Assembly: GCA_947472995.1 (NCBI GenBank)
Contig: CANJBO010000003.1
Coordinates: forward strand, 22,917 to 86,916
Source of the DNA: Chloroflexota bacterium
GTDB lineage: Bacteria; Chloroflexota; Dehalococcoidia; UBA2979
DNA length: 64,000 bases
Reading direction: 5' to 3'
The position numbers and the translations under genes are program-made. The notes beneath the pieces were generated by a model, which worked only from the letters and a program-made list of their open reading frames with translations, was not told the origin of the DNA and did no database searches. Positions 13,756 to 33,132 of the stretch are shown here, one piece after another (position 1 is the stretch's first letter; every line of letters starts with the position of its first letter).

Positions 13756-14967
13756 ATGACCACTGATGCCTTGCGGGACCTGAGCGTCCTCGAATGCGGC
13801 ACCCGGCTCAGCGTCGCCATGTGCGGCAAGCTGCTGGCCGACCTCGGCGCGACCGTCACGAAGGTTGAGCCGATCGGGGGCGACCCCGCGCGCCGCGTCG
13901 GCCCGTTCCCGGGTGACGTCCAGCACCACGAGCAGAGCGGACTCTTCGCGTACCTCAACCGCGGGAAGCGCGGCATCACGCTCGACCTCGACACCGCCGC
14001 CGGCCGCGAGGCGTTCGGGCGGCTGGCGTCGGAGGTCGACATCGTGATCGCGGGCGGCACCTACGACGAGCTCGACCGCTGGGGCGTGCTGTACGACTCG
14101 CTGGGTGCGGCGAAGGAAGACCTGGTCTGCACCGCGATCACGCCGTTCGGCCTCACCGGCCCGCACCGCGACTACGTGGACAGCGAGATCGTGGTCACCG
14201 CGCAGAGCGGCATCGGGTACTACGTGCCCGGTCCGGTCGCCTCGCTGGACATGCCCCCGGTCGTCCCCGGCACGCACCTCACGCCGTTCACGGCGGGCGT
14301 GCAGGCCGCCTCCGCGACGATGGTCGCCATCACCGGCGGCGGCGGACGCCAGGTGGACGTGTCCGAGCAGGAGACGTTCCTGGACAGCCTCCGCATGTAC
14401 CTCAGCACCTACGCGTACGAGGGTGTCGTGCACCCTCGAGGTGCCGCCGACCAGGCGGTGGCCGTGCGCGGCCAGACCGGCAGGGCGAAGGACGGCTACA
14501 TCGCCAGCCTTCCCGGCCCGCAGTCGACCGACGCCGCGTGGATCAGCCTGGTCGACGCGATGGGCAACCCGGAGTGGGCGACGCAGCCCGAGATGTTCGA
14601 CCTGGAGTACCGCCGCGCGAACGCGCCGGACATCATCGCGAAGATCAACGCGTGGACCGCGGACATGCCGAAGGCGGAGATCGCGCGGCTGATGCAGGAG
14701 CGCCACCACCCGGTGCTCCCCACCAACGGCATCGACGACCTCCTCGTGGACGACCAGCTCATCGCACGCAACTACTTCGTGCCGATGGGCCAGCCGGGCC
14801 TCGAGGCGGCGAAGATGCCGGCGAGCCCGATCCGCTACGACGGCGCCTCGATCTCCTCGGGCGGTGGGCGCGCCCCGTTCCTGGGCGAGCACACCGTCGA
14901 GGTGCTGACCGGCGCCGGGTTCTCCGATGACGAAGTGAAGTGGCTCGACCGCTCCGGGGTCGTGTAG
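13756..14967 (+). CDS. family III (CaiB/BaiF) CoA-transferase paralog 1, apparently lacking the catalytic Asp
   Basis: The N-terminus LRDLSVLECGTRLSVAMCGKLLADLGATVTKVEP is the family III Rossmann-like signature. At the position of the CaiB-type A-D-Y-x-x-G motif the sequence reads HLTPFTAG (by-eye alignment anchored on GGGRQVDVSEQE). Confidence 0.85.
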   Translation: MTTDALRDLSVLECGTRLSVAMCGKLLADLGATVTKVEPIGGDPARRVGPFPGDVQHHEQSGLFAYLNRGKRGITLDLDTAAGREAFGRLASEVDIVIAGGTYDELDRWGVLYDSLGAAKEDLVCTAITPFGLTGPHRDYVDSEIVVTAQSGIGYYVPGPVASLDMPPVVPGTHLTPFTAGVQAASATMVAITGGGGRQVDVSEQETFLDSLRMYLSTYAYEGVVHPRGAADQAVAVRGQTGRAKDGYIASLPGPQSTDAAWISLVDAMGNPEWATQPEMFDLEYRRANAPDIIAKINAWTADMPKAEIARLMQERHHPVLPTNGIDDLLVDDQLIARNYFVPMGQPGLEAAKMPASPIRYDGASISSGGGRAPFLGEHTVEVLTGAGFSDDEVKWLDRSGVV

Positions 14968-14979
14968 AAAGGCGATGCG

Positions 14980-16194
14980 GTGACGCTTCCTCTTGAAGGC
15001 ATTCGCATCCTCGACCTGACGTGGTGGATCGCCGGGCCGCTGGCGACCATGCAGATGGCGATGATGGGGGCGGAAGTCATCCGCCTCGAAAGCCGCGCCC
15101 GCCCGGACAGCATGCGCCTGACGACGCCCTTCGCCGAGAACGAGCCGGGCGTGAACCGCAGCGGCCGCTGGAACAGCCACAACTTCAGCAAGCACTCCGC
15201 CGCGCTCAACCTCTCGAAGCCCGAGGGTGCCGAGCTGGCGAAGCGCCTCGTCGCGAAATGCGACATCGTGTTCGAGAACTTCGCCGGTGGCGTCCTCGAC
15301 CGCATGGGCCTCGACTACGAGACGCTGAAGGCGATCAACCCGCGCATCATCCTGTGCGCCGTCTCCGTCGTCGGTCGTGACGGGCCGAAGGCCAAGTACA
15401 TCGGCTTCGGCCCGGGCGCGATCGCGTACTCCGGCCTGGGCGCGATCACCGGGCACAAGGGCGGCGCGCCGGGCACCATCCCGCCGTTCCTCGCCGACTA
15501 CACCACCGCGTGGCACGCCGAGCTGGCGATGCTCGCCGCGCTGCACGAGCGCAAGCGCACCGGCGTCGGCCGCCGCATCGAGCTGTCGATGGTCGAGGCG
15601 GCTGCGAGCCAGCTGCCGGAGCCGTTCATCGACGCCACGCTCAACGGCCGCATCGCGCAGCCGAAGGGCAACGACCACCCCACGACCGCGCCGCACGGCT
15701 ACTACCCGTGCGCGGGCAAGGACCGCTGGATCGCGATCGCCGTCGAGGACGACGACCAGTGGTTCGGCCTGTGCGAGACCCTGGACGGCGCCGACTGGAA
15801 GTTCAGCGCCGACCCGCGCTTCGCGGACGGCCTGCTGCGCCACCAGAACCGCGAGGAGCTGGACGCCGCGATCGCCGAGGAGACGCGCCAGTTCGACGCG
15901 TTCTCGCTGGAGGGGCGCCTGCAGACCGCCGGGGTGCCGGCCGGCGTCGCGCTGACGCCCGCCGACGTCTACGCCGACCCGCACCTGCGCTCGCGCGAGG
16001 TGATCATCGCCCCGGAGCACCCGGAGGTCGGGCCGTACCCGATGGTCGGCCTCGCGTGGCACATCGTGGACCAGCCGCCCGTCGTCCGGCCCTCGCCGCT
16101 GCTCGGCCAGGACAATGCGTATGTGTGGGGCGAGCTCCTCGGCCTGACCGAGGCGGAGATCGCGGAGTACGAGGCGGCCGGCGTCATCAACTAG
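14980..16194 (+). CDS. family III CoA-transferase paralog 2
   Basis: GTG 14980. LEGIRILDLTWWIAGPLATMQMAMMGAEVIRLE, and an active-site region FLADYTTAW...TGVGRRIELSMVEAA with the Asp present. Confidence 0.9.
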   Translation: MTLPLEGIRILDLTWWIAGPLATMQMAMMGAEVIRLESRARPDSMRLTTPFAENEPGVNRSGRWNSHNFSKHSAALNLSKPEGAELAKRLVAKCDIVFENFAGGVLDRMGLDYETLKAINPRIILCAVSVVGRDGPKAKYIGFGPGAIAYSGLGAITGHKGGAPGTIPPFLADYTTAWHAELAMLAALHERKRTGVGRRIELSMVEAAASQLPEPFIDATLNGRIAQPKGNDHPTTAPHGYYPCAGKDRWIAIAVEDDDQWFGLCETLDGADWKFSADPRFADGLLRHQNREELDAAIAEETRQFDAFSLEGRLQTAGVPAGVALTPADVYADPHLRSREVIIAPEHPEVGPYPMVGLAWHIVDQPPVVRPSPLLGQDNAYVWGELLGLTEAEIAEYEAAGVIN

Positions 16195-16237
16195 CGCCGC
16201 GTCCGTGTCACCCTCGACAGGTGACGTGAGATGACAT

Positions 16238-16267
16238 GAAGAAGCCCGCCAATCGGCGGGCTTCTTC
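16238..16267. terminator. bidirectional hairpin terminator between convergent genes
   Basis: GAAGAAGCCCGCC-aatc-GGCGGGCTTCTTC, a perfect 13-bp stem. A second hairpin CGAGGCGTCC-gccgg-GGACGCCTCG lies at 16297..16321. Confidence 0.7.
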
Positions 16268-16334: not shown

Positions 16335-17390
16335 CTAGCCCCAGGCGCCGCCGTCGCGGAACTCCTTCGGAACGGCGCTGCCGTCCGGGAAGGTGTTGCC
16401 GACGCCCAGCGGCTCCGAGCCGCGGATCAGCTTGAGGCCGTTGTCCGACAGGATCATGCGCTTCTCGGCGTCCGAGAGCAGCGGCATGTTCAGCCAGATG
16501 TCGATGTCGCGCTTGCGGTCGTGGTTGAACTCCGTGAGCGGGAAGTTCGTGCCGAACGCGACGTGCTCCGCGCCGACGCGGCGGACCATCTTGGCGAGGT
16601 CCTCCATCAGCTCGGGGTGCTCGGCGACGCGCGGCGTGACCACCGTGGTGTCCGCGTAGATGTTCTCGAAGTTGTCGCACAGGTCCAGCAGGTCGCCGAA
16701 CGTGTTGTTGTAGCCACCCAGGGCGTGGGCCATGATCACGCTCAGGTTCGGGAAGGTCTCCAGCGTCTTGCGGAACTGGCGCGGACGGCCCCAGACGTCA
16801 CCCGTGCGCGGGTTGATCGAGATGCCGTTCTGCCCCATGCCGAAGCCGCCGCCGGTCTGCGCGAACAGCGGCATGTTGATCGACTGCATGAACTCGTACA
16901 TCGGGAACAGGCGCTTGTCGTCCGCGTGGTGGTGGGTCTGGACGTTGAGCAGCTTCACGCCGCGCGCGCCCTCGTCCCAGCGGTTCTGGACGTAGCTGGC
17001 GAGCTGGTCGCCGGCCATCAGGCGCGGGTCGACCATGATGAACGGGACGATCTCCGGGTGCTGCTGGCCGACCCAGCAACCCCACGCGTTGTTGTGGTCC
17101 ATGCGCGTGAGGAGCTTCTGGTCGAGCTTGATGCCCGAGTTGTTCTCCCACACGGACGTGCCGTACTCGCCGCGCTCGCGGAGGTCGCGCTGCCGCATCT
17201 CGCGGGTCGGGGTGACGATCATCGCCGCGGAGTAGGCGACGCCGGCGTCCTTGTGCCCGGCAAGGAAGTCCTCGGGCAGGCCGGTGTATGGGATCACCGC
17301 GGTGTGCGGGTTCCGCCAGAAGGCGCGCTGGCCCACTTCGGGGGTCCTGAAGAGGTGCGTGTGGATATCGACGACTGGGTAGTCTGGCAT
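16335..17390 (-). CDS. amidohydrolase_2 family metal-dependent hydrolase/decarboxylase/hydratase (ACMSD/LigI/LigJ-like TIM barrel)
   Basis: GGGAGGG SD. Starts MPDYPVVDIHTHLF (the HxH metal motif), has an internal VIMAHALGG, and a C-terminal VAFGTNFPL where the family normally has GSDxP. Confidence 0.8.
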   Translation of the reverse strand: MPDYPVVDIHTHLFRTPEVGQRAFWRNPHTAVIPYTGLPEDFLAGHKDAGVAYSAAMIVTPTREMRQRDLRERGEYGTSVWENNSGIKLDQKLLTRMDHNNAWGCWVGQQHPEIVPFIMVDPRLMAGDQLASYVQNRWDEGARGVKLLNVQTHHHADDKRLFPMYEFMQSINMPLFAQTGGGFGMGQNGISINPRTGDVWGRPRQFRKTLETFPNLSVIMAHALGGYNNTFGDLLDLCDNFENIYADTTVVTPRVAEHPELMEDLAKMVRRVGAEHVAFGTNFPLTEFNHDRKRDIDIWLNMPLLSDAEKRMILSDNGLKLIRGSEPLGVGNTFPDGSAVPKEFRDGGAWG

Positions 17391-17693: not shown

Positions 17694-18911
17694 ATGGCAA
17701 TTCAGCACCCCCTCGAAGGCGTCAAGATCATCGAGATCGCGACGTACGCGCCGGCCAACATCGCGGCCGGCTGGCTCGCGGACCTCGGCGCCGACATCGT
17801 CGTCATCGAGCCGCCCTCGAACCGCGCGCTTGGCCCCGAGTGGGACAAGAGTGACCGCATCCGCCACGTCGAGAACCGCAACAAGCGCGGCATCGGCCTG
17901 AACCTCCGCGAGGCGGCCGGGCAGGAAGTCCTGCACAAGCTCGCGAAGGACGCGGACGTGCTGATCGAGGCGAACCGCCCCGGCGTCGCCAAGCGCCTCG
18001 GCTTCGACTACGAGACGCTCTCGAAGATCAACCCGCGCATCATCGTGCTGTCCTCCACTGGCTACGGCCAGGAGGGCCCGTTCAAGATGCTGCCCGGCCA
18101 CGGCAACGTGTGGGAGGCCACCGGCGGCTGGCTCGCCTCGCAGGGCCTTGGCCTCGGCAACATGGCGGGTGACTACAGCGGCCTGCCGTGGCTGAACCCG
18201 TTCAACCTCGCCGACATCAAGTCCGCGCCGACGATCCTTGCCACCGTGCTCGCCGCGCTCTACGCGCGCGAGAAGACGGGCGAGGGCCAGTACTGCGACA
18301 TCGCGCTGTTCGACAACGTGATCGCGGTGAAGGACCCCTCGAAGCCCAGCAGCACCGGCGACGCGTACTACCACGACCGCCAGCCGCGCCCGAGCTGGAA
18401 CAACTACAAGTGCAGCGACGGCAAGTACATCGCCTTCGCCGCCGGCGAGGAGATCCAGTGGGCCAACCTGTGCAAGCAGCTCGGCCTGGAGCAGTACACC
18501 CACGACCGCGGCAACAACGTCACGCCTGAGAAGAACCGCGAGATCGCGGAGGCGATGGGCAAGGTCCTGGCGACCAAGACCCGTGACGAGTGGTTCGCCC
18601 AGCTGAGCCAGGTCGACACGGAGGTCGCCCCGGTCCTCTCGCTCGACGAGGCCGCGGAGCACCCGCAGGTCAAGCTGCGCAACATGCACGTCGAGGTGAC
18701 CGACGACGAGGGCTACCGCCAGATCCAGTACGGCACCCCGATCAAGCTGAGCAAGACCCCGCCGAAGCTGAAGCACCGCCGCGCGCCGAAGTTCGGCGAG
18801 CACACGGAGTCCGTGCTGCAGGAGCTGGGCTACTCCGGCGACCAGATCAAGAACCTGGTCGACTCCGGCATCGCGATCAGCCGCAAGTACGGCGGCGGCG
18901 GCGGCAAGTAG
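17694..18911 (+). CDS. family III CoA-transferase paralog 3
   Basis: ATG 17694 follows GGAGGAG (the track ORF starts 7 codons earlier). LEGVKIIEIATYAPANIAAGWLADLGADIVVIEPP, and NLADIKSAP...TGEGQYCDIALFD with the Asp present. Confidence 0.9.
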   Translation: MAIQHPLEGVKIIEIATYAPANIAAGWLADLGADIVVIEPPSNRALGPEWDKSDRIRHVENRNKRGIGLNLREAAGQEVLHKLAKDADVLIEANRPGVAKRLGFDYETLSKINPRIIVLSSTGYGQEGPFKMLPGHGNVWEATGGWLASQGLGLGNMAGDYSGLPWLNPFNLADIKSAPTILATVLAALYAREKTGEGQYCDIALFDNVIAVKDPSKPSSTGDAYYHDRQPRPSWNNYKCSDGKYIAFAAGEEIQWANLCKQLGLEQYTHDRGNNVTPEKNREIAEAMGKVLATKTRDEWFAQLSQVDTEVAPVLSLDEAAEHPQVKLRNMHVEVTDDEGYRQIQYGTPIKLSKTPPKLKHRRAPKFGEHTESVLQELGYSGDQIKNLVDSGIAISRKYGGGGGK

Positions 18912-19148: not shown

Positions 19149-19163
19149 CGCTCGCGCGGAACG

Positions 19164-20057
19164 CTAGCTCATGACCGCCGCGGCGAAGTTCCGCATCTGG
19201 TCCAGGTACCCACCGCGAGCGGCGGGCAGGTTGACGACCATGCGGTTCACGCCCAGTGCCTCGAAGGCGGCGATCTCCTGCTTGGCCATCGTCGGGGTGT
19301 AGCGGTTCCAGGTCATCTCGCCCCGGGCCGACATGGTGCCGCTGGCGTCCTCGCCCTCGGCGACCATCAGCGGCGACCAGCGCACGGAGATGTCCGGGAA
19401 CTTCGCGCCCTTCGCGTCGCAGTACGCGCGGAGCTGGTCAACCAGCGGCGCGAGCTTCTCGGCGGAGCTCCCGCTGGGGTGCCAGCCGCCGCCGTACTCG
19501 ACGATGCGGCGCCACGTCGGGGTGTTGTTGCCGCCGATGAAGAACTTCGGGTACGGCTTCTGCACCGGGTGGATGAGCGGCTGCACGTCGTCGAAGTTCG
19601 TGTACTTCCCGTGGAAGCTCGCGCGCTCGTTCGTCCAGAGCTCGACCATGACCTTCATGTACTCGTCGTTCATCGCGCCGCGCTCGTCGTACGGCAGGCC
19701 GAGGGCGGCCGACTCGTCCGGCTCGTGGCCCGGGCCGGTGCCGATGATCAGGCGGCCGTTCGACAGGTAGTCGATCGTCGCGAGCATCTTGGCGGTCTGG
19801 ACCGGCGGGCGGTAGGGGATCACGAGGATCGTGGTGCCCAGCAGCAGCTTCGTGGTGCAGGCGGCCATGAACGGCAGCAGCGCCAGCGGGTCCTTGAACT
19901 CGTTGCCGTAGTGCGCCGCCATGTTGCCGGGGAAGACCACGTGGTCGTTGACCCAGGCGGAGTCGTATCCGAGCTCCTCCGCCAGCCGCATCGTCTCGCG
20001 GCAGTTGTCCGGCGTGAACCAGGACGCGAAGTTCGGGATGACAAGACCGTATTCCAC
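19164..20057 (-). CDS. luciferase-like monooxygenase (LLM) class flavin/F420-dependent oxidoreductase
   Basis: Trimmed to GTG 20057, which follows AGAGGAGGGG. VEYGLVIPNFASWFTPDNCRETMRLAEELGYDSAWVNDHVVFP and the rest are LLM-typical. The upstream 61 codons of the track ORF lack coding character. Confidence 0.8.
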   Translation of the reverse strand: MEYGLVIPNFASWFTPDNCRETMRLAEELGYDSAWVNDHVVFPGNMAAHYGNEFKDPLALLPFMAACTTKLLLGTTILVIPYRPPVQTAKMLATIDYLSNGRLIIGTGPGHEPDESAALGLPYDERGAMNDEYMKVMVELWTNERASFHGKYTNFDDVQPLIHPVQKPYPKFFIGGNNTPTWRRIVEYGGGWHPSGSSAEKLAPLVDQLRAYCDAKGAKFPDISVRWSPLMVAEGEDASGTMSARGEMTWNRYTPTMAKQEIAAFEALGVNRMVVNLPAARGGYLDQMRNFAAAVMS

Positions 20058-20266: not shown

Positions 20267-20974
20267 ATGCTGATCGATCTGCACACGCACACCCGCCTCG
20301 GATCGCCTGACTCCTTCCTCGACCCGGACGAACTGGTGGAGCGCTCGAAGGCCGCGGGCCTCGACGCGATCGTCCTCTCCGAGCACGACCACACGTGGTC
20401 CCGCGACGACATCGCCGCGCTCTCCCACCGCCACGACTTCCTCGTCATCCCGGGCCTCGAGGTCAGCACCGACCGCGGCCACATCCTGGTCTACGGCGTC
20501 GAGGTCTACGACCCGTCGATGCGGGAGGCCGAGACGCTCGCCGACGAGGTGGAGCGCCTGAACGCCGCGATGGTCGCCGCGCACCCCTACCGCCTGCACC
20601 AGCCGATGAACTGGCTCGACCCCGACGACTTCGAGCGATCCGTCGAGCGCGTCCTCGTCGACCCCGCCTACCAGCGCGTCCACGCGATCGAGGTGCTCAA
20701 CGGGCACGGCACGCGGAAGCAGAACCGCTTCTCGGAGGCGGTGGCGACCCGCCTCGGCCTCCCGGGGACGGCAGGCACGGACTCGCACCAGGTGTCCGAC
20801 ATCGGCAAGGCCGCCACCTACTTCGAGCGGGACATCCGCGACGAGCGCGACCTCGTTCGGGAGATCCTCGCCGGGCGCTGCTGGGCGGTGGACCGCACCG
20901 CCGGGAAGCTGACAAGCGACGAGCGCCGCCACGGCGTCCCGGCCGATATCGCCGCGGGGTTCTCCGCCTCCTAG
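20267..20974 (+). CDS. PHP-domain metal-dependent phosphoesterase
   Basis: MLIDLHTHTRLGSPDS, VLSEHDH, PGLEVST, AAHPY and GTDSH match the PHP histidine/aspartate motif series. Confidence 0.8.
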   Translation: MLIDLHTHTRLGSPDSFLDPDELVERSKAAGLDAIVLSEHDHTWSRDDIAALSHRHDFLVIPGLEVSTDRGHILVYGVEVYDPSMREAETLADEVERLNAAMVAAHPYRLHQPMNWLDPDDFERSVERVLVDPAYQRVHAIEVLNGHGTRKQNRFSEAVATRLGLPGTAGTDSHQVSDIGKAATYFERDIRDERDLVREILAGRCWAVDRTAGKLTSDERRHGVPADIAAGFSAS

Positions 20975-21154: not shown

Positions 21155-22393
21155 ATGACGCTGGCGAACGAACTGACCTCCTCGCCGCCGCTGCCCGGAC
21201 CGATGGCCGGGCTGCGAGTGCTCGACCTGACGCGGCAGATCGCGGGGCCGTACAGCACGAAGCTGATGGCGGACTACGGCGCCGACGTCATCAAGATCGA
21301 GCAGCGCGAGGTGGGCGATCCCTCGCGCCACCTCCCGCCGTACTTCCACGACGTGGTCGACGCGGAGGGCAGTCTCCACTTCCTCTACCTCAACACCAGC
21401 AAGCGCGGCATCACGCTCGACCTGAAGTCCGAGCGCGGGCGGGAGATCTTCCTCGACCTCGCGCGCACGGCGGACGTCGTCGTGGAGAACTTCCGGCCCG
21501 GCGTGATGGAGGAGATGGGCATCGGGTGGGAGACGCTGCACGCGATCAACCCGCGGCTCGTGCTCACCTCGATCAGCAACTTCGGGCAGACCGGCCCGTA
21601 CCGCGACCTGCGCGCGAGCGAACTCGTCGAGTACGGCATGAGCGGCGTCATGACGATTAGCGGCCGCGAGGACCGCTCGCCGCTGAAGCACGGCCTGTCG
21701 CAGGGCCAGTACGACGCGGGCGCCTACGCCGCGTGGGTCACCGCGATGATGCTGCTGTGGCAGGTGCAGGGCCGCGAGGGCCAGTGGGTCGACATCTCGA
21801 TCATGGACGTGCTCTCGACCACGCTGGTGCTGAACGAGCCGTACTACGCGTGGATGGGCGGCATCCAGGGCCGGCGCACCCCCGCCGGCGACGGTACCGG
21901 CAACGGGCTGGCCGATATCATGCCCTGCGCCGACGGCTACGTGATCGTCCAGCACCGCCAGCAGGAGCCGTGGGCGAACGTCGTCGCGCTGCTCGAGGAG
22001 CCCGAACTCGACAACGATCTCTACACCTCGAACGAAGGCCGGATGCTCGCCAGCGAGACGCTGTACGAGGCGCTGAAGAAGGGGCTCTCGCGCATCACGA
22101 AGCGCGAGCTCTTCGAGAAGGGCGCGAAGCTCGGCGTGCTGATCGGGATCGCGCAGGACCCGGCCGACATCCTCAACTGTCCGCATCTCAACGCGCGCGG
22201 CTACTTCGTCGACGTGGATCACCCGACCACCGGGCCGATGAAGTACCCCGGCGCGCCGGTGCGCATGCCCGGCACCGGCTGGGCCGTCCACCGTCCCGCG
22301 CCGCTGCTGGGCCAGCACACCGACGAGGTCCTGGACGAGCTGGGCATCAGTGCCGCGGAACGCGCCGAGCTGCGCGCGCAGAAGGTGATCTAG
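21155..22393 (+). CDS. family III CoA-transferase paralog 4
   Basis: ATG 21155; a start at M76 is also possible. MAGLRVLDLTRQIAGPYSTKLMADYGADVIKIEQ, and GQYDAGAYAA...REGQWVDISIMDV with the Asp present. Confidence 0.85.
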   Translation: MTLANELTSSPPLPGPMAGLRVLDLTRQIAGPYSTKLMADYGADVIKIEQREVGDPSRHLPPYFHDVVDAEGSLHFLYLNTSKRGITLDLKSERGREIFLDLARTADVVVENFRPGVMEEMGIGWETLHAINPRLVLTSISNFGQTGPYRDLRASELVEYGMSGVMTISGREDRSPLKHGLSQGQYDAGAYAAWVTAMMLLWQVQGREGQWVDISIMDVLSTTLVLNEPYYAWMGGIQGRRTPAGDGTGNGLADIMPCADGYVIVQHRQQEPWANVVALLEEPELDNDLYTSNEGRMLASETLYEALKKGLSRITKRELFEKGAKLGVLIGIAQDPADILNCPHLNARGYFVDVDHPTTGPMKYPGAPVRMPGTGWAVHRPAPLLGQHTDEVLDELGISAAERAELRAQKVI

Positions 22394-25347: not shown

Positions 25348-26373
25348 CTACTGCAGGTTGAACTTCTGGATGCGCTTCCCGTTGTGCACCTCGGCGGTGT
25401 AGAGGTTGCCCTTCGAGTCGGCGGCGATGTTGTGCACCCACTCGAACTGGCCGGCCATGCGGCCGCCTCGACCGAACGAGCCCACGATCTCCAGGCTCTT
25501 GCGGTTGAGGATCCACACCTTGAAGTTCGACCCATCCGGGACGTACAGCCAGGTCTGGTCGGCGTCCTTCGAGAGCTCCACGTCCCACGTCGAGCCGGCG
25601 CCGCGGGTCTCGCGGCGGACGAACGTCTCGGTGACGTACGTGCCGTCCTTCTGGAAGACCTGGATGCGGTCGTTGACACGATCGGTCGCGTACACCAGCC
25701 CGTCGTTCGCGATGCGGACCGAGTGGACCGGGTTGCGGAACGAGCGGATCGTCGGCTGCGACGGGTCGTACGCCTCCAGCGGGCCGTCGACCGGCACCTC
25801 GCCGAACGAGCCCCAGTGGCGCTTGTACTCGCCGGTGTTCGAGTCGAACACCACCACGCGGCGGTTCTCGTAGCCGTCGGCGATGTAGACCTCGTTCGCC
25901 GCGTCATCCACGGTGATGTCGGCGGGACGGCCCAGGTGCTTCTTGTCGTTGCTGCCGCTGGTCTTGCCCAGCTCGCCGATCGTCATCAGCAGCTTGCCGT
26001 CGACGGTCAGCTTGTTCACGACGTGGTCTTCGCCGCCGTTGCTGCCGACCCAGACGTTGTCCGAGTCATCGACGTAGATGCCGTGCTCGTTCTGCGGCCA
26101 GTTGTCGACCTTGCCGATGCCGCCGAACGCGTGGATCACGTTACCGGCCGGGTCGAAGCAGACGACCGGCGGCGCGGGCTGGCAGCACTCGGAGCGCGGC
26201 GGGTCCTGGATGGCCCCGGCCTCGGACTCGTCCAGGCTGTTCCCGCGGTGGATCACCCAGACGTTGTCGTGCGAGTCGACCGCGATGCCGGAGCACTGAC
26301 CGAACACCCAGTTCTCGGGCATCGGCTTCGGCCACATCGGCTCGACTTCAAACTTGGGGACTGCTTGGTTCAT
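25348..26373 (-). CDS. NHL-repeat six-bladed beta-propeller, peptidyl-alpha-hydroxyglycine alpha-amidating lyase (PAL)-like, no signal peptide
   Basis: ATG 26373 (MNQAVPKFEVEPMWPKP...). ADGYENRRVVVFD resembles the PAL ADGYCNSRI motif. There are repeated blade motifs (VYATDRVNDRIQVFQKDG, LYTAEVHNGKRIQKF) and a conserved SECC pair. Confidence 0.75.
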   Translation of the reverse strand: MNQAVPKFEVEPMWPKPMPENWVFGQCSGIAVDSHDNVWVIHRGNSLDESEAGAIQDPPRSECCQPAPPVVCFDPAGNVIHAFGGIGKVDNWPQNEHGIYVDDSDNVWVGSNGGEDHVVNKLTVDGKLLMTIGELGKTSGSNDKKHLGRPADITVDDAANEVYIADGYENRRVVVFDSNTGEYKRHWGSFGEVPVDGPLEAYDPSQPTIRSFRNPVHSVRIANDGLVYATDRVNDRIQVFQKDGTYVTETFVRRETRGAGSTWDVELSKDADQTWLYVPDGSNFKVWILNRKSLEIVGSFGRGGRMAGQFEWVHNIAADSKGNLYTAEVHNGKRIQKFNLQ

Positions 26374-26503
26374 TGCGACCGCCTTCCGCAAACAAGTTGT
26401 GCGCCGCGACTATTCGTCAGAACGCAGCGCGCGTCAAGGTAACAACCGTGCGCCCGGGCTTCTTGCGAACGCACGCAGTAATAGACGTATGCGAGGTGCA
26501 CGC

Positions 26504-27544
26504 CTACCGGCTGGTGAATTTCTGGATGCGCTTCCCGTTGTTCACCTCCGCGGTGTACAGGTTGCCCTTCGAATCGGCCGCCAGGTTGTGCACCCACTCG
26601 AACTGCCCGACCTGCCGGCCGCCTCGCCCGAACGAGCCGACGACCTCGAGGCTCTTGCGGTCGAGGATCCACACCTTGAAGTTCGCGCCGTCGGCGACGT
26701 ACAGGAACTGCTGCTCGGGATCGGTGGACAGCTCCATGTCCCACGCCGAGCCGGCGCCCAGCGTCTCGCGGCGGATGAACGCCTCCGTGACGTACGTGCC
26801 GTCCTTCTGGAACACCTGCACGCGGCAGTTCGCACGGTCGGCCGCGTAGACGAGGCCGTCGCGCGCTACCTGCACGGAGTGCACCGCGCTGCGGAACGAC
26901 CGGATCGCCGGCTGCGACGGGTCGTACGGCGGCAGCGCATCATCGTGCGGGCGCTCGCCGTACGCGCCCCAGTGGCGCTTGTACGCCCCGGTCGTCGCGT
27001 CGAAGACGATGATCCGGCGGTTCACGTAGCCGTCCGCGAGGTACACCTCGTTGTCCGCGTCCACGACGTGGATGCCGGCGGTCTGGCCGAGGAGGCGCGT
27101 GTCGTTGCTGCCGCCGGTCTCGCCCGGCTCGCCGAGGACCAGCAGCAGCTTCCCGTCCAGGTCGAACTTCACCACCATGTTGTCGCCGCGCCCCTCGGCG
27201 TCGACGCCGTTGCCGCCGACCCAGATGTGGTCGTCCAGGTCCACGTAGACGCCGTGCTCGCGCCGCGGCCACGGATCGATGACACCGATCCCGCCGAACG
27301 TGTGGATCACGTTCCCCTCCGGGTCGAAGCACAGCACCGGCGGCGCCGGGACGCAGCACTCCGAGGTCGGCGGGACCTGCGCCGCGCCCGCCTCGACGGC
27401 ATCGAGGCTGTTCGGGCGGTGGGCCACCCAGATGTTGTCGTGGGAGTCCACCGCGATGCCGGCGCACTGGCCCAGCATCCAGTTCTCGGGCAGCGGCTTC
27501 GGCCAGCTGGGGTCGACGGTGAACTGCGGGACGGTCTTGTTCAT
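26504..27544 (-). CDS. NHL-repeat PAL-like beta-propeller, tandem paralog
   Basis: ATG 27544 (MNKTVPQFTVDPSWPKP...). It is collinear with the neighbour over its full length, and roughly three quarters of the first ~90 residues are identical by eye. The upstream 109 codons of track ORF 26504..27871 are noncoding-looking. Confidence 0.75.
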   Translation of the reverse strand: MNKTVPQFTVDPSWPKPLPENWMLGQCAGIAVDSHDNIWVAHRPNSLDAVEAGAAQVPPTSECCVPAPPVLCFDPEGNVIHTFGGIGVIDPWPRREHGVYVDLDDHIWVGGNGVDAEGRGDNMVVKFDLDGKLLLVLGEPGETGGSNDTRLLGQTAGIHVVDADNEVYLADGYVNRRIIVFDATTGAYKRHWGAYGERPHDDALPPYDPSQPAIRSFRSAVHSVQVARDGLVYAADRANCRVQVFQKDGTYVTEAFIRRETLGAGSAWDMELSTDPEQQFLYVADGANFKVWILDRKSLEVVGSFGRGGRQVGQFEWVHNLAADSKGNLYTAEVNNGKRIQKFTSR

Positions 27545-27930: not shown

Positions 27931-29133
27931 ATGGAATTCGCGTACACACCGGCTCAGCGGGCTCTCCAGAAGGAAGTCCAGGACTTCATCGCCAAGGAAG
28001 TCACGCCTGAGGTTGAGGCCGAACAGGACGAGATCGGCCGCGGCCCGCTCGTCGAGGCCGTCTACGACAAGATCAAGGCCAACGGCTGGCGTGCCATCAG
28101 CTGGCCGAAGCAGTACGGCGGCCAGGACGGCAACCGTCTCGACCAGTACATCGTTGAGGAAGAGTTCGCTCGCGTCGGCTTCAGCGTCGGCGGCGGCGGG
28201 TCCGGTGCTCCCACCATCCTTGCGGGTGGCAACCAGGAGCAGAAGGACAAGTACATCGCCAAGCTGATCAGCGGCGAGTGGTCGTTCTGCCAGGGCTTCA
28301 CGGAGCCGCAGGGCGGCGCCGACCTCGCGGGTCTGCAGTGCCGTGCCGTCAAGGACGGCGACGACTACATCATCAACGGCCAGAAGATGTACACGACCGG
28401 CGCCCACCGCGCCACGCACATCTACCTCATGGCCCGCACGGACCCGGACTCCAAGCGGAACGCCGGCATCTCGATCTTCCTGATCCCGATGGACACCCCG
28501 GGCATCACGGTGCGCCCGCTCTGGTCGATCCAGAACGAGCCGCGTGCGCCTCGTGGCACCACGTACGGCGAGAACCGCACCAACGAGACGTTCTTCGAGG
28601 ACGTCCGCGTGCCGGCCAACTGCCTGCTGGGCGAAGAGAACAACGGCTGGAACCTGAGCGCGATGGGTCTGAACCTGGACCGCGTCGGTGCTTCCCGCTA
28701 CCTCATCTCCGTCCGCCGCGACGAGGACATCGTGAACTGGGTCAAGGACCCGGCGAACGCGGACCTCGCTGCGAACATCAAGGACAACCCGTCGGCCCGT
28801 GACCGCATCGCGGAGTGCTGGACCGAGGCGCAGGTGTGCCGCCTGATGACCCTGCGATCGATGTCGATCGTGGAGCACGAGGGCAAGTTCACCTACGAGG
28901 GCTCCGCCGAGAAGGTGTGGGCTCCCGAGCACGGCGTGAAGACGACCGAGACGATCGCTGCGCTGCTTGGCCCCTACGCCCAGCTGCTCAACGGCGCCGA
29001 GGACGCGATCGAGTCGGGCCTGTACGCGCACAACGTCATGGGCGCGTTCCAGTCCGGGATCAACCACGGCTCCACCCAGATCATGCGTGACCAGGTCGCC
29101 CTGCGCGGCCTCGGGCTGCCCCGCAGCCGCTAG
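27931..29133 (+). CDS. acyl-CoA dehydrogenase family protein 1
   Basis: ATG 27931 follows GGAGG. MEFAYTPAQRALQKEVQDFIAKEV, WSFCQGFTEPQGGADLAGLQCRAVKDGDDYIINGQKMYTTG, and a C-terminal GINHGSTQIMRDQVALRGLGLPR. The ACAD N, middle and C domains are all recognisable. Confidence 0.9.
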   Translation: MEFAYTPAQRALQKEVQDFIAKEVTPEVEAEQDEIGRGPLVEAVYDKIKANGWRAISWPKQYGGQDGNRLDQYIVEEEFARVGFSVGGGGSGAPTILAGGNQEQKDKYIAKLISGEWSFCQGFTEPQGGADLAGLQCRAVKDGDDYIINGQKMYTTGAHRATHIYLMARTDPDSKRNAGISIFLIPMDTPGITVRPLWSIQNEPRAPRGTTYGENRTNETFFEDVRVPANCLLGEENNGWNLSAMGLNLDRVGASRYLISVRRDEDIVNWVKDPANADLAANIKDNPSARDRIAECWTEAQVCRLMTLRSMSIVEHEGKFTYEGSAEKVWAPEHGVKTTETIAALLGPYAQLLNGAEDAIESGLYAHNVMGAFQSGINHGSTQIMRDQVALRGLGLPRSR

Positions 29134-29282: not shown

Positions 29283-30452
29283 TTGGATATCCTGCTGAAC
29301 GAAGAAGAGCAGATGGTGCGCGACGCGGCGCGGAGCTTCCTCGAGTCTGAGACCTCGACGAAGCTCGCCCGTGAGATGGAGAAGGACCCGCTCGGCTACC
29401 CGCCGGCGCTGTGGAAGCAGATCGCTGACCTCGGTTGGGTCGGCATGTGCATCCCGGACCAGTACGGCGGTCAGGGCCTCGGCCTGACGTACCTCGGCCT
29501 CGTGCTCGAGGAGGTCGGCCGGGCGATCGCCCCGCTGCCCCTGCACAGCACCACCGTCCCGGCGATCACGATCGCTGAGTTCGGCTCGGAAGAGATCAAG
29601 CAGGCCGTCCTGCCCGGCGTCTGCAGCGGCGACACGCTGCTCGCGTTCGCCTTCCAGGAGCGCGACCCGCGCATCATCGCCGACGCGATCAAGACGACCG
29701 CCGTGCTGGAGGGCGACAACTACGTCGTCAACGGCACGAAGATGTTCGTCGACAACATCAACACGGCCTCGAAGGTCCTGACCGTTGTCCGCAAGCCGGG
29801 CACCACCGGTCGCGACGGCCTCTCGCTGCTGCTGATCGACACCGACGCTGCTGGCCTGACCCAGACCCTTGAGGTCACCACGGCGAAGGACAAGCAGGGC
29901 CGCGTCGACCTGAACAACGTGAAGGTCCCGAAGAGCGCGCTCATCGGTGAAGAGGGCAAGGGCTGGCCGATCGCCGAGAAGATGCTCGACGTCGCCACCG
30001 CGCTCCTCGTCATCCAGATGGAGGGCACCGCCCGCAAGGACGCCGAGATCACCATCGCGTACGCGAAGGAGCGCACCGCCTTCGGTCGCCCGATCGGCGC
30101 GTTCCAGTCCGTGGCGCACATGCTCGCCGACGCGATCATGTGGTGCGACGGCGCGCAGCTGCTGGGCTACGAGGCGCTGTGGGCGCTTGAGAACCGCGGC
30201 AACGCGGGCCTCGAGGTCTCCCAGGCGAAGTCGTTCGCGAACGACCGCCTCCTGCCGGCCTGCCGCATCGGTCAGCAGATCCACGGTGGCATCGGCTTCA
30301 TGATGGAGTTCGACATCGCGCTGTACTACCGGCGTGTTGCGGCTTCGACCATGCGCCTCGGCACCTCGTTCGAGCACCGCGCGCGCATCGCCGCGGCGCT
30401 GATCGACCAGCCGGGCACCGTCCGCCTCGGGGAGCCGATCGCCACCCTGTAA
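29283..30452 (+). CDS. acyl-CoA dehydrogenase family protein 2
   Basis: TTG 29283 follows GGAGGA. MVRDAARSFLE..., LLAFAFQERDPRIIADAIKTTAVLEGDNYVVNGTKMFV, RTAFGRPIGAFQSVAHMLAD and QIHGGIGFMMEFDIALYYRR. Confidence 0.9.
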   Translation: MDILLNEEEQMVRDAARSFLESETSTKLAREMEKDPLGYPPALWKQIADLGWVGMCIPDQYGGQGLGLTYLGLVLEEVGRAIAPLPLHSTTVPAITIAEFGSEEIKQAVLPGVCSGDTLLAFAFQERDPRIIADAIKTTAVLEGDNYVVNGTKMFVDNINTASKVLTVVRKPGTTGRDGLSLLLIDTDAAGLTQTLEVTTAKDKQGRVDLNNVKVPKSALIGEEGKGWPIAEKMLDVATALLVIQMEGTARKDAEITIAYAKERTAFGRPIGAFQSVAHMLADAIMWCDGAQLLGYEALWALENRGNAGLEVSQAKSFANDRLLPACRIGQQIHGGIGFMMEFDIALYYRRVAASTMRLGTSFEHRARIAAALIDQPGTVRLGEPIATL

Positions 30453-30494: not shown

Positions 30495-30692
30495 ATGGCA
30501 ATTGACCCGGTGTGCGGTAAGGAAGTTGACGAGGCGGTCGTGCGCGCCACGACCGGTCAGACCGAGGGTGGCGCCAACGAGGTGGACCCGGCGCAGGGCA
30601 CGCGCCGCTTCCACGACGGCAAGTGGTACTACTTCGACAGCGTCGACTGCCGCTTCCGCTTCATGGCCAACCCGGCCGCGTTCATCAAGTAA
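30495..30692 (+). CDS. YHS/TRASH-domain mini-protein
   Basis: 65 aa. DPVCGKEVDE...GKWYYFDSVDCRFRFMANPAAF matches the YHS pattern (C-G-x-x-V ... Y-Y-F-x-S-x-x-C-x-x-x-F). Confidence 0.7.
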   Translation: MAIDPVCGKEVDEAVVRATTGQTEGGANEVDPAQGTRRFHDGKWYYFDSVDCRFRFMANPAAFIK

Positions 30693-30698
30693 CCGTTG

Positions 30699-30730
30699 GT
30701 CGAGGCGAGACAGCGATGTCTCGCCTCGAC
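30699..30730 (+). terminator. hairpin terminator after the YHS gene
   Basis: GTCGAGGCGAGACA-gcga-TGTCTCGCCTCGAC, a perfect 14-bp stem 7 nt after the stop. Confidence 0.65.
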
Positions 30731-30886
30731 ATCACGCGCTCCTCGTTCGTCACGGTGGGCGGCCGGTTTCCGGTCCGCAACCCGGTGGCGAGCGTGGGGC
30801 GCGTTGAGCGTCTGCCGAGGCACGCGACCGCGTGAATGCGGCGCGAAACCTCAGGTATCGCGACCTCCGGCTCGATTGACAATCCC

Positions 30887-30895
30887 TGTTATATT
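30887..30895 (+). promoter_or_regulatory. candidate extended -10 promoter element TGTTATATT
   Basis: The TG-N-TATATT motif was read directly in an AT-richer patch (ATTGACAATCCCTGTTATATT) about 170 nt upstream of the HMGL-like gene. Confidence 0.3.
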
Positions 30896-31066
30896 CGCCC
30901 CGATGTGGGTGCGCAGGGAACCAGCGACCGCCATGATCGCCTCGCGCGACCTCGACGGCACCGGTCTCGAGCGACTGGTCGAGGGTGTCGGCGGCGGCAC
31001 CCACAACCGATACCACGACCCCAGGAAATGTTGCTGCGAGCGTACGCAGCAGGAGGAGTTTCTCTC

Positions 31067-32197
31067 ATGGCACGAGAATGGGCCAAGGTCGAAATTGGCG
31101 ATGAGACCATGCGTGAGGGCATGCAGATCGAGGACAAGGACATCCCGGTAGCGGACAAGATCCGCCTCCTGGACGCGCTGTCCAAGACCGGCCTCAAGAG
31201 CATCAACGTGGGTTCGTTCGTCAGCCCGACGTACACCCCGCAGATGGCGAAGATCGACGAGATCGTCACCGGCTTCCACCCGGAGCCCGGCGTCCGCTAC
31301 ACCGCGCTCGCGCTGAACGAGCGTGGCGTGCAGCGCGCGCGCGAGTACTCGCCGCCGCTGACGATCGGTCGCGGCAACCCGTCGCTGGGTGTGCACATGT
31401 GCGACATCTTCATCCGCCGCAACGCGAACCGCAGCCAGGCGGACGAGATCGCCCGCTGGGAGGGCACGATCGCCGCGGCGAAGGAGAACGGCGCGAAGGA
31501 AGCCGGCATCGGCAACAACGCCTCGTGGGGCTCGAACTTCACGGGCGAGGTCTCCATGGAGCGCCGCTTCGAGATGCTGGAGCGCCAGCACAAGCTCTGG
31601 GACGAGGCCGGCATCAAGGTCACCTCGATCTCGCTGGGTGACCCCATGGGCTGGTGCCGCCCGTGGATCGTCAAGGACGACATCCTGGAGATCAAGAAGC
31701 GCTGGCCGGAGATCGTGAACTGGCGCTTCCACTTCCACAACGGTCGTGGCCTCGCGCTGGCGTGCACGTACGCCGCCCTCGACGTGCTCGAGGCGAAGGA
31801 CACGCTGCACATCGACACCGCTGTCGGCGGCATCGGCGGCTGCCCGTACTGCGGCTCGGGCCGCGGCATGGGCATGGCCCCGACCGAGGACATCGTCAAC
31901 ATGCTCAACGAGATGGGCATCGAGACCGGCATCGACATCTACAAGGTGATCGAGTGCGTGTGGATGCTCGAGGAGATCCTCGGCCGCTCGACGGTCGGCA
32001 TGGTCGGCAAGGTGGGCCCGATGCCGCGCGGCAGCAAGCTCTACGACCCGAACCTCCCGTTCGTCGAGACGTTCGCCCAGAGCCGCCACTTCATCAAGGG
32101 CCCGTCGGTCCTGGGCGACGACGCGGTGTACCCGTGGTCGAAGCCGATCGAGAGCGACCAGAAGGAAGAGGCGTTCTCCACCGCGAAGGCCAAGTAG
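31067..32197 (+). CDS. divergent HMG-CoA lyase-like (HMGL-like / pyruvate carboxyltransferase fold) enzyme
   Basis: ATG 31067 follows AGGAGGAG. GDETMREGMQIE aligns with EVGPRDGLQNE, SINVGSFVSPTYTPQMA with SFVSPKWVPQMA, FHFHNGRGLALA with HxHDTxGxAxAN, and VGGIGGCPYCGSGRGMGMAPTEDIVNML with GLGGCPYA...GNxxTEDL. Confidence 0.8.
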   Translation: MAREWAKVEIGDETMREGMQIEDKDIPVADKIRLLDALSKTGLKSINVGSFVSPTYTPQMAKIDEIVTGFHPEPGVRYTALALNERGVQRAREYSPPLTIGRGNPSLGVHMCDIFIRRNANRSQADEIARWEGTIAAAKENGAKEAGIGNNASWGSNFTGEVSMERRFEMLERQHKLWDEAGIKVTSISLGDPMGWCRPWIVKDDILEIKKRWPEIVNWRFHFHNGRGLALACTYAALDVLEAKDTLHIDTAVGGIGGCPYCGSGRGMGMAPTEDIVNMLNEMGIETGIDIYKVIECVWMLEEILGRSTVGMVGKVGPMPRGSKLYDPNLPFVETFAQSRHFIKGPSVLGDDAVYPWSKPIESDQKEEAFSTAKAK

Positions 32198-32233
32198 TCT
32201 TCGTGCGGGTGAACGCAGTCGGCAACGACTGAA

Positions 32234-32269
32234 CGACCGGCCGGCAGAGCAATCGCTCTGCCGGCCGGT
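32234..32269 (+). terminator. strong rho-independent terminator
   Basis: GACCGGCCGGCAGAGC-aatc-GCTCTGCCGGCCGGTC, a perfect 16-bp stem followed by TGTTTGTG. A further hairpin GCCCGCATCCG...CGGATGCGGGC lies at 32321..32357. Confidence 0.8.
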
Positions 32270-32400
32270 CTGTTTGTGCGCCGCTCGTCTCCAGCAGTCG
32301 GTCCGTCGAGGCATGAAGAAGCCCGCATCCGCGCCACGACTCGGCACGGATGCGGGCTACGTTGTGTCGAGGTGCCTCGACGCGTGTCGCGCGAGCGCGG

Positions 32401-33132
32401 CTACGGCTTCGGGCGCTCCAGCAGGACGGTAGCGCCCATGCCGATGTACTTGTCGCGCAGGTTGAAGTCGTAGCTGCGGTAGGCGAGCTTCGCGCCGGTG
32501 CCCTCCAGGGCCTTCACGGCGTACTCCACGCACGCGTCGTCGGAGACGGCGAGCGGGTGGTGCGGGTTCAGGTTGCGGTCGATCGTGAGGTCCGACGGTC
32601 CCCACGAGATGCAGTCCACGCCCGGCGCGGCGAGCATCGGGATGTTGCAGATCGCCTGGATCGACTCAACCTGGATCCAGAGCACGCCGTAGCTGTTCCA
32701 CCACGAGGTGTACTCGGGGATGCCGGACCGCTCGTCCTGCCCGACGCGCGCCGCGCCGCCCCAGCTGCGCTTGCCCTGCGGGCGGAAGTATGTGAAGTCC
32801 ACCGCGTCGCGCACGGTCTCCTCCGTCTCCGACTGGGGCACCTCGATCATGCTGGGGCCGAGGTCGAACCAGTTGCCGACCTGGAACGCGTAGCGCGTGT
32901 GCTTGATGCGGAAGTGGACCGGGATGCCCAGCTCCTGTGCGGCCTTCGTGAACTCCACGAGCTTCGTCTCGTCGAGGGGGCTGTGCTGGCTGTCGACGGA
33001 GACGAAGTTGTAGGCCGGGTCCTTCGAGTAGGCCTGCTCGATCTGCGCCTTCGTCGAGCCGATCGGCAGGCCGATGCCGATCGTCGTCTCGCCGCGCTTG
33101 ATGCGCTCCTTCAGGTTCTCTTCGCCGGTCAT
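32401..33132 (-). CDS. HpcH/HpaI-family aldolase / citryl-malyl-CoA-lyase-like enzyme
   Basis: ATG 33132 follows GAGGAG. ERIKRGETTIGIGLPIGS, FVSVDSQHSPLDE, MIEVPQSETEE and VLWIQVESIQAICNI fit the HpcH_HpaI TIM-barrel pattern. Confidence 0.75.
   Translation of the reverse strand: MTGEENLKERIKRGETTIGIGLPIGSTKAQIEQAYSKDPAYNFVSVDSQHSPLDETKLVEFTKAAQELGIPVHFRIKHTRYAFQVGNWFDLGPSMIEVPQSETEETVRDAVDFTYFRPQGKRSWGGAARVGQDERSGIPEYTSWWNSYGVLWIQVESIQAICNIPMLAAPGVDCISWGPSDLTIDRNLNPHHPLAVSDDACVEYAVKALEGTGAKLAYRSYDFNLRDKYIGMGATVLLERPKP

Follow-up and report, generated by a model that had tools for sequence, protein, structure and literature searches.

A CoA-transferase island of an uncultured Dehalococcoidia bacterium appears to hold a reduced copy of a multi-phylum transferase, dehydrogenase and lyase module

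Do six family III coenzyme A (CoA)-transferase genes and their neighbours, crowded into some 19 kb of a Dehalococcoidia genome, form a single pathway? The island in question lies at 13.7-33.2 kb of a 64-kb stretch of contig CANJBO010000003.1 (the whole stretch is called the window here), and its initial annotation took about 16 genes for one undescribed pathway. Dehalococcoidia and SAR202 bacteria are abundant, and their many CoA-transferase paralogs are thought to aid the degradation of recalcitrant organic acids; hardly any has an assigned substrate. Large paralog families of CaiB/BaiF-type transferases and flavin oxidoreductases are known from SAR202 genomes (PMC5395668). As argued below, the island is best read as a non-random neighbourhood, a mosaic of small units, whose core would be a reduced module for a transferase-dehydrogenase-hydratase-lyase route. 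We put the probability of this reading at roughly 55%.

Because the G+C content of the window is 66-75% and spurious open reading frames (ORFs) are many, genes were called by third-position G+C and then checked against an independent metagenome assembly of identical DNA (L001); the identical contig is present in several ENA metagenome assemblies. The nearest named homologs of the lyase encoded in the island are from Dehalococcoidia and SAR202 metagenome-assembled genomes (MAGs). Since the top GTDB species representative is only 69% identical, the host belongs to an undescribed Dehalococcoidia lineage of uncultured, SAR202-like Chloroflexota. Pfam, NCBIfam and L001 placed the six CaiB/BaiF-type transferases and the other listed genes exactly where they had been annotated. 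All six transferases match PF02515 over profile positions 1-366 (E 1e-67 to 5e-102), their starts are identical in L001, and they are confined to 11.5 kb, with zero transferase genes in the other ~52 kb. As originally reported, a scan of the major ORFs at 13.7-33.2 kb showed no acyl-CoA synthetase, crotonase, 3-hydroxyacyl-CoA dehydrogenase, thiolase or regulator; Rfam and tRNA scans detected neither a regulatory RNA nor a tRNA in the island. The genes are distributed over at least eight transcription units on alternating strands.

Which of them belong together is best seen in other genomes. A scan of the GTDB species genomes gave lyase relatives in at least 587 stretches, and all island proteins were mapped onto the best 80 lyase loci with ~10 kb on each side. 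Many of these contigs are truncated and the locus counts are, therefore, lower bounds. The initial annotation had proposed to look for co-conservation of the 16-gene set; around the 80 homologs only a part of it recurs. This core consists of the transferase genes CoAT4 and CoAT5, the two acyl-CoA dehydrogenase (ACAD) genes ACAD-L and ACAD-S, the gene of a YHS mini-protein and the lyase gene, named R-E-G lyase after a motif; in the window, the PHP gene is counted with the core. An adjacent CoAT4-CoAT5 pair is found near the lyase homolog in 24 of the 80 loci, both ACADs in 20, and a YHS gene adjoining ACAD-S in 18. Thirty loci have two small hot-dog genes (HDN and HDC), which together make up a split MaoC-type hydratase in the relatives of the window and sit between the YHS and the lyase gene. 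Transferase pair, ACAD pair and hot-dog pair are all present in 16 loci; their hosts are Dehalococcoidia, Acetobacteraceae, Rhodospirillaceae and other Alphaproteobacteria. Incomplete modules extend the distribution to Methylomirabilia (Methylomirabilota), Solirubrobacteraceae and a megaplasmid of Rhodococcus sp. USK10 (Actinomycetota). On this megaplasmid the gene order is TetR, then lyase-HDN-HDC-transferase-transferase-ACAD, followed by a MatC/CitMHS carrier, an aconitase-family gene and a 2-oxoacid dehydrogenase E1 gene. MmgE/PrpD is encoded in 24 loci, in ~13 of them near transferase or lyase genes by coordinate. In the literature on SAR202, on YHS-associated ACADs, on PrpD and HMG-CoA lyase and on tertiary-alcohol lyases we found neither a characterised orthologous cluster nor a description of the module.

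A conserved protein of ~90 amino acids is encoded after HDC in 20 loci of Dehalococcoidia, Alphaproteobacteria and Methylomirabilia. It is 70-100% identical among them and has no confident Pfam match; examples are L036 (12495-12767), L026 (12507-12776) and L069 (12448-12720).

The anchor of the core is an enzyme resembling HMG-CoA lyase (HMG, 3-hydroxy-3-methylglutaryl), whose gene probably starts at 31067 and not at 30836. Both unusual motifs noticed in the initial annotation are indeed present, MREGMQ (with R-E-G) and HFHNGRG. The protein aligns with ~122 bits to the HMG-CoA lyase 2ftp and reaches 162.3 bits with NF004283 (HMG-CoA lyase), below the cutoff of 246. With human HMGCL and bacterial LiuE (2cw6, 2ftp) it shares the Pfam family over ~300 aligned residues, the Arg, both His of His-x-His and the Cys of GGCPY. 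It differs by Glu in place of the metal-ligand Asp, by 'HxHNGRG' for 'HxHDTxG', by a C-terminal extension of ~60 residues and by the lack of leucine-catabolic genes near it in the window. The roles of R-D-G, H-x-H and the Cys of GGCPY are presumably those generally ascribed to HMG-CoA lyase. In an alignment of 33 lyase homologs R16, E17, G18, H222, H224 and C259 are invariant, and because E17 and its flanking residues never vary, the R-E-G variant defines a subfamily. A possible precedent, not used as evidence here, is the R-citramalyl-CoA lyase of Chloroflexus, an enzyme of the HMG-CoA lyase family encoded beside a family III transferase.

Upstream of the lyase gene the window has a non-coding gap of 374 bp at the very site of the two hot-dog genes in relatives. 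By tblastn, similarity to HDN or HDC was absent from the whole 64 kb, and the gap DNA had no similarity to the corresponding 972 bp of a relative with ~86% identity (L006); the arrangement is identical in the independent assembly. HDN aligns to the N half and HDC to the C half of the itaconyl-CoA hydratase 8khg, collinear and with weak scores (E 4e-4 and 0.03), and the pair also gives weak matches to ChsH1 and ChsH2. More distant relatives with 66-69% lyase identity (L011, L012) carry ACAD-L, ACAD-S, YHS, HDN, HDC, lyase and PHP genes, L006 retains only HDC, and the window retains neither hot-dog gene. The loss of the hydratase thus looks stepwise and lineage-specific. The original statement that the island has no hydratase is true of the window; its relatives carry the split pair. 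Homologs of MmgE/PrpD, of the 90-amino-acid protein and of Metallophos were also absent from the 64 kb. From gene content, the core of the window is a reduced copy of a wider module, without the hydratase pair, MmgE/PrpD and the 90-amino-acid gene. Compared with the 86% relative all reading frames are intact and rough Nei-Gojobori ratios of nonsynonymous to synonymous substitution rates (dN/dS) are 0.10-0.43, with the higher values of 0.34-0.43 in CoAT4, CoAT5 and PHP; by these ratios the remaining genes are still under constraint.

The two ACADs of the core have three ACAD domains each and are 25% identical to each other. The top NCBIfam match of ACAD-L is the large subunit PimC (182 bits, cutoff 623.85); the model of the small subunit PimD gave 144.1 bits (cutoff 652.7). 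In the aligned ACAD-L orthologs the motifs 'GLNLDRVG', with an Asp at the IVD-type base position, and 'INHGS' are invariant. In ACAD-S both known catalytic-base positions lack an acidic residue ('MRLGT', 'LDVATA'), and among 23 ACAD-S orthologs nearly all have 'MRLGT' where the motif 'YEGT' would stand. We located the base positions by motif and take them to be those generally known for ACADs. Divergent adjacent genes with a candidate base in only one product are the hallmark of heteromeric (alpha2beta2-type) ACADs, and ACAD-L and ACAD-S look like one such enzyme with ACAD-L probably being the catalytic subunit. PimCD of Rhodopseudomonas and the ChsE-type enzymes are likewise encoded by two adjacent divergent genes; here, ACAD-L has Asp and not Glu as putative base and YHS is attached. 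A two-gene hot-dog hydratase, as in the relatives of the window, and cleavage by a lyase or aldolase in place of a thiolase are further features in common with the Pim and Chs systems, whose cleaving enzyme is of a different family. For the Chs enzymes of Mycobacterium we assume what is generally known of them.

The six transferases are only 23-33% identical to each other and must, therefore, be old paralogs rather than recent duplicates. CoAT1 is most similar to chain A of BbsEF, the succinyl-CoA:(R)-benzylsuccinate CoA-transferase (9fn0_A, 136 bits versus 101 for chain B) and CoAT2 to chain B (9fn0_B, 231.5 bits versus 86 for chain A). The same holds for CoAT4 (9fn0_A, 196.8 bits versus 113 for chain B) and CoAT5 (9fn0_B, 196.4 bits). 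In both pairs the order is A then B, with gaps of only 12 nt between CoAT1 and CoAT2 and 2 nt between CoAT4 and CoAT5. The column of the catalytic Asp (equivalent to Asp169 of Frc) was placed by position and by alignment to 9fn0_B, not against the Frc sequence; it holds Asp in CoAT2, CoAT3, CoAT5 and CoAT6, reads 'TP' in CoAT1, and in CoAT4 the Asp is displaced. The Asp of 'GQS[YF][PV]DF' is invariant in 29 out of 29 CoAT5-type sequences, and its position is variable among 28 CoAT4 orthologs. We take each pair to form a putative heteromer of BbsEF type in which a single subunit is catalytic: CoAT5 is probably the catalytic subunit and CoAT4 its partner, and CoAT2 is likely the catalytic partner of CoAT1. 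In the bbs system, too, an ACAD acts after the transferase. The similarity to the Bbs subunits is modest (~196 bits), the island has no counterpart of the crotonase, the SDR dehydrogenase and the thiolase of the bbs operon, and a lyase would cleave the C-C bond in place of thiolysis.

The second pair has a history of its own. Orthologs of CoAT1 are rare; those at 74%, 65% and 55% identity each directly precede a second transferase gene, and CoAT1-CoAT2 is a BbsEF-like pair that travels independently of the core. The two singletons behave differently: CoAT3 is 79% identical in the 86% relative (L092) and stands next to Amidohydro_2 there too, and the place of CoAT6 is held by a different transferase in that relative. 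In many SAR202 and Dehalococcoidia loci an R-E-G lyase gene is followed by a single transferase gene as a two-gene unit, without ACADs and hydratase (L057, L060, L071, L075-L077, L081, L083, L084, L087 and L090, at ~10001-13000). These transferases are 33-36% identical to CoAT6; values of 34-35% after the lyase gene are found in many SAR202 loci. Proteins of 809 amino acids consist of two fused CoA_transf_3 domains (L008, 16220-18649; L009, 15940-18369) and may be fused versions of two-subunit transferases; they are encoded in a Dehalococcoidia contig which bears two copies of the lyase gene.

How might the complete module work? In a first step the BbsEF-like heteromer CoAT4/CoAT5 would use succinyl-CoA as CoA donor for a dicarboxylate of the succinate type that is substituted at position 2. 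The heteromeric ACAD, with ACAD-L as catalytic and ACAD-S as non-catalytic subunit and YHS as accessory protein, would then produce a 2-enoyl-CoA, which the hot-dog pair would hydrate to a 3-hydroxy-3-substituted acyl-CoA. Such a tertiary alcohol is not oxidisable to a ketone; the lyase would split the tertiary 3-hydroxyacyl-CoA into acetyl-CoA and a 2-oxoacid. The logic may be illustrated by methylsuccinate, which would be converted via mesaconyl-C4-CoA and citramalyl-CoA to acetyl-CoA and pyruvate. Because the copy in the window has no hydratase pair, its host would have hydration encoded elsewhere or use acids that are already hydroxylated. The dicarboxylate carrier and 2-oxoacid dehydrogenase genes on the USK10 megaplasmid fit the proposed route, and the chemistry originally proposed, with entry by CoA transfer and a lyase in place of thiolysis for breaking the C-C bond, suits the conserved core.

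The five roles of the extended module of other genomes are known from a cluster of Pseudomonas aeruginosa and Cupriavidus necator for itaconate and methylsuccinate: a CoA-transferase (Ict), methylsuccinyl-C4-CoA dehydrogenase, a MaoC-type hydratase (Ich), citramalyl-CoA lyase (Ccl) and an MmgE/PrpD methylsuccinate isomerase (PMC12290011). The likeness is one of roles. Here, a two-gene BbsEF-like transferase and a two-gene ACAD with YHS are found, the hydratase is split and the lyase is HMGL-like with R-E-G and not Ccl. All five roles occur in some related loci, with other families for transferase, ACAD and lyase; in the window hydratase and MmgE/PrpD are absent. The claim that the gene set matches no known pathway has, thus, to be divided: no equivalog cutoff for the Cai, Frc, Smt/Mct, succinate-glutarate or PimCD enzymes was reached, but the extended module shares the roles of itaconate and methylsuccinate degradation. 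That the module stands for an uncharacterised pathway for substituted succinates or branched dicarboxylates, present in several phyla and built from enzyme subfamilies without any characterised member, is a tentative assignment to which we give slightly less than even odds.

Several points weigh against the proposed module and route. All steps are deduced from family membership and gene context, and the subunit pairing solely from adjacency and best-match patterns. The sample of loci, with its many truncated contigs, is biased to MAG-rich lineages. Roughly every second one of the 80 lyase homologs stands without any other core gene nearby or with a single transferase only, from which it follows that the lyase family is not bound to one module. 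The matches of HDN and HDC to 8khg are weak, as given above, and the pathway is incomplete in the window, where the hydratase is absent. Bulky substrates, for example steroid side chains, are those for which heteromeric ACADs and split MaoC hydratases are best known. The nearest transferase structure (9fn0) acts on benzylsuccinate, and the size of the substrate could exceed that of methylsuccinate by far.

These last points lead to a serious rival, which we nevertheless consider unlikely: the core would act on bulky carboxylated alicyclic or isoprenoid-derived acids, and the lyase step on the tertiary alcohol would serve to break a ring open or to take off a side chain, as in the downstream part of the anaerobic naphthalene (thn) pathway or in steroid side-chain cleavage. 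Heteromeric ACADs, split MaoC hydratases (compare the weak ChsH1/ChsH2 matches) and benzylsuccinate-type transferases are all typical of such substrates. In the thn pathway (ThnP, ThnO, ThnL, ThnQS), too, a family III CoA-transferase is combined with an ACAD, a hydratase and a lyase for a tertiary alcohol that blocks normal beta-oxidation (PMC11659651, PMC12016498). Moreover, the SAR202 relatives, rich in CaiB paralogs, are proposed degraders of alicyclic recalcitrant matter (PMC5395668). However, the thn lyase is AtuA-like and not HMGL-like (PMC12016498), and we dismissed thn as a direct counterpart for this reason and retain it as an analogy; further differences are ThnP as a single intramolecular transferase, ThnO as a homotetramer, a crotonase as hydratase and its occurrence in strict anaerobes. 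MmgE/PrpD and the match to itaconyl-CoA hydratase favour small branched dicarboxylates (PMC12290011), and the dicarboxylate carrier and 2-oxoacid dehydrogenase genes of Rhodococcus suit small acids as well.

The original proposal saw all ~16 genes and the importer as one undescribed pathway for an imported peptide- or opine-like conjugate, with the amidohydrolase, the PAL-like propellers and PHP processing the conjugate, six transferases shuttling the acids and two lyases cleaving them. The crowding of all transferase genes of the window into 11.5 kb speaks for it, as do purifying selection on every gene compared and the permeases, which stand beside CoAT1-CoAT2 again in a relative with 74% identity. 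Most of the island is, in addition, syntenic in the ~86% relative (L006, L092), as is evident from the layout of L092 with Amidohydro_2, CoAT3, a second PHP-like gene, LLM, PHP, CoAT4, CoAT5, a different transferase, one NHL and ACAD-L. At 86% identity, however, shared ancestry alone would yield synteny, and beyond the closest relatives the parts separate: the NHL genes are found elsewhere and CoAT1-CoAT2 occurs alone. The 80 loci do not have HpcH, Amidohydro_2, CoAT3 or CoAT6 beside the core. In detail, HpcH and the NHL genes have two weak matches each near the lyase, Amidohydro_2, CoAT1 and CoAT3 none, CoAT2 one weak match and CoAT6 matches of 28-36% identity, the latter two at paralog level. 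Together with the spread over eight or more transcription units, whose orientation alternates, this makes a single 16-gene pathway improbable, and the original claim was given up in favour of the module.

That the genes have no functional link, the island being a by-product of a genome saturated with paralogs and its core a decaying remnant after loss of the hydratase, would agree with the large CaiB/BaiF and flavin-monooxygenase families of SAR202 genomes (PMC5395668), with the stepwise loss from both hot-dog genes in L011 and L012 to HDC only in L006 and none in the window and with the higher dN/dS of CoAT4, CoAT5 and PHP, but is very improbable in view of intact frames with dN/dS well below 1, of six out of six transferase genes in 11.5 kb of 64 kb, a crowding that scattered paralogs would not produce, and of pairs and a core that recur across phyla in conserved order.

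Other known pathways were tried and rejected. For carnitine, the CaiB model scored 63-126 bits (cutoff 413) and CaiA 52.7 and 101.8 (cutoff 540); for the 3-hydroxypropionate bi-cycle (Mct and the succinyl-CoA:mesaconate transferase), TIGR04253 gave 47-84 bits (cutoff 725) and NF041294 132-206 (cutoff 700). The NCBIfam equivalog scores for oxalate/formyl-CoA (Frc) and succinate-glutarate transferases were far below their cutoffs, and the PimC and PimD scores given above speak against an assignment to PimCD. The expansions of CaiB/BaiF and flavin-oxidoreductase families described for SAR202 concern the same lineage and the same families in high copy number; that work gives genome-wide paralog counts and, in the passages covered here, describes neither the module nor paired transferases (PMC5395668).

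With the preferred reading the island is resolved into two heteromeric transferase pairs, one cross-phylum core and lineage-specific neighbours, and Rhodococcus sp. USK10 is a cultured host bearing the core that can be tested genetically. If the reading is true, the module would add a second, non-orthologous way to break down methylsuccinate and similar branched dicarboxylates. The R-E-G subfamily of HMG-CoA-lyase-like enzymes (with relatives in at least 587 places in GTDB species genomes) and the YHS-associated ACADs would then have their first functions, and benzylsuccinate-type transferases would be broadly used outside anaerobic hydrocarbon degradation.

Table 1 Genes and gap of the island and its upstream importer (positions in the 64-kb window)
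Feature	Position	Strand	Family match and remarks
Family 5 solute-binding protein (Opp/Dpp/opine type)	9284-11014	+	PF00496, E 3e-56; far below NCBIfam equivalog cutoffs
ABC permease, first	11654-12595	+	BPD_transp_1, BPD_transp_1_N
ABC permease, second	12652-13560	+	BPD_transp_1, OppC_N
CoAT1	13756-14967	+	PF02515, E 1.5e-67; BbsEF chain-A type, without canonical catalytic Asp
CoAT2	14980-16194	+	PF02515, E 5e-102; BbsEF chain-B type, Asp present
Amidohydro_2	16335-17390	-	PF04909, E 1e-18; no NCBIfam match
CoAT3	17694-18911	+	PF02515, E 1.5e-83; singleton, Asp present
F420-dependent LLM-class oxidoreductase	19164-20057	-	TIGR03619 (Rv2161c family), 196.6 bits, above the cutoff of 166.9
PHP metallohydrolase (CehA/McbA-type)	20267-20974	+	PHP_C, PHP; NF038032, 98.5 (cutoff 80)
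CoAT4	21155-22393	+	Predicted chain-A-type subunit of BbsEF-like pair (core)
CoAT5	22396-23808	+	Predicted chain-B-type subunit, C-terminal extension (core)
CoAT6	24011-25201	+	PF02515, E 1.4e-101; singleton, Asp present
PAL-like NHL six-blade propeller, first of tandem	25348-26391	-	
PAL-like NHL six-blade propeller, second of tandem	26504-27544	-	
ACAD-L	27931-29133	+	Three ACAD domains; PimC-like (core)
ACAD-S	29283-30452	+	Three ACAD domains (core)
YHS mini-protein, 65 aa	30495-30692	+	Faint PF04945 match; directly after ACAD-S (core)
Non-coding gap	30693-31066		374 bp; site of two hot-dog hydratase genes in relatives
HMG-CoA-lyase-like, R-E-G subfamily	31067-32197	+	PF00682 (core anchor)
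HpcH/HpaI-type class II aldolase	32401-33132	-	PF03328, E 1.4e-8; convergent with lyase gene

We count CoAT3, CoAT6, Amidohydro_2, LLM, HpcH and the NHL genes as lineage-specific neighbours outside the core (Table 1). The only PDB relative of Amidohydro_2 is the uncharacterised BB4693. Paralogs of the LLM oxidoreductase occur in 15 of the 80 loci, mostly with 25-46% identity. HpcH is conserved in the 86% relative (L006), and its top NCBIfam match is HpaI with 60 bits (cutoff 369). PHP is the first gene of a run with CoAT4, CoAT5 and CoAT6 and adjoins lyase or transferase genes in Dehalococcoidia relatives (L008, L011-L013). A phosphoesterase beside such genes recurs, as PHP in Dehalococcoidia and as Metallophos_2 in five alphaproteobacterial loci (for example L069, 9230-9826). 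What such an enzyme would do in a CoA-ester route is not obvious.

The annotation of the two propellers as PAL-like was borne out by a full-length alignment to the catalytic core of rat PAL, the peptidyl-alpha-hydroxyglycine alpha-amidating lyase (3fvz). NHL1 keeps all six residues checked, R533, H585, Y654, H690, R706 and H786 (numbering offset verified with 5wm0), which we take to be three His ligands of Zn, the catalytic Tyr and the two Arg; NHL2 agrees with NHL1 in these columns. Asp787 of the Ca site is replaced by Asn, the genes are duplicated in tandem, and a PHM-like domain, PHM being the monooxygenase partner of PAL, was absent from the window ORFs scanned. The N-termini are, by eye, unlike signal peptides. 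Between the copies the identity is 69%; in the 86% relative the gene is single. Plausibly, the propellers are Zn-dependent lyases. We rejected them as members of the pathway, for homologs at 53-56% identity have no island gene nearby. These homologs adjoin an alpha/beta hydrolase in three independent loci (L095, 8185-13177; L097, 8517-11071; L099, 2314-4698), and L095 adds a pair of FAA-hydrolase genes and a ring-cleavage dioxygenase of LigB type.

Of the importer said to lie directly upstream, the solute-binding protein and the two permeases are present; the operon upstream of CoAT1 has no ATPase gene, and the two ATPase genes nearby are part of another Opp/Dpp-type system (1422-7663). The solute-binding gene is the first of a + strand run that ends in CoAT1-CoAT2. 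Among the CoAT1 orthologs only the 74% relative has permeases beside the gene, and there the solute-binding gene is absent, MauE being followed directly by the permeases. In the window, a MauE-like membrane domain fused to an AhpC/TSA or thioredoxin-like domain is encoded between the two ABC systems (7781-8812, + strand), and this fusion gene also precedes the permeases and CoAT1-CoAT2 in the 74% relative.

A few observations concern the remainder of the window. Its G+C content is 0.71-0.75 at 38000-60000 compared to 0.66-0.70 in the island and at the window ends. Between the HpcH and 1-Cys peroxiredoxin genes lies an ORF with a secreted look by eye and without Pfam or NCBIfam match (33278-34048, - strand). 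A c-di-AMP riboswitch (RF00379, 37119-37271, - strand, 59.3 bits, gathering score 38) is situated just upstream of two genes, one for a 570-amino-acid protein that weakly matches glycosyltransferase-2 (35313-37025) and one for a small cupin (34993-35316), and this gene pair is seen again in the 86% relative (L006, L007). A TPP riboswitch (RF00059, 53474-53577, - strand, 63.4 bits) lies upstream of a - strand ORF at 52564-53409.

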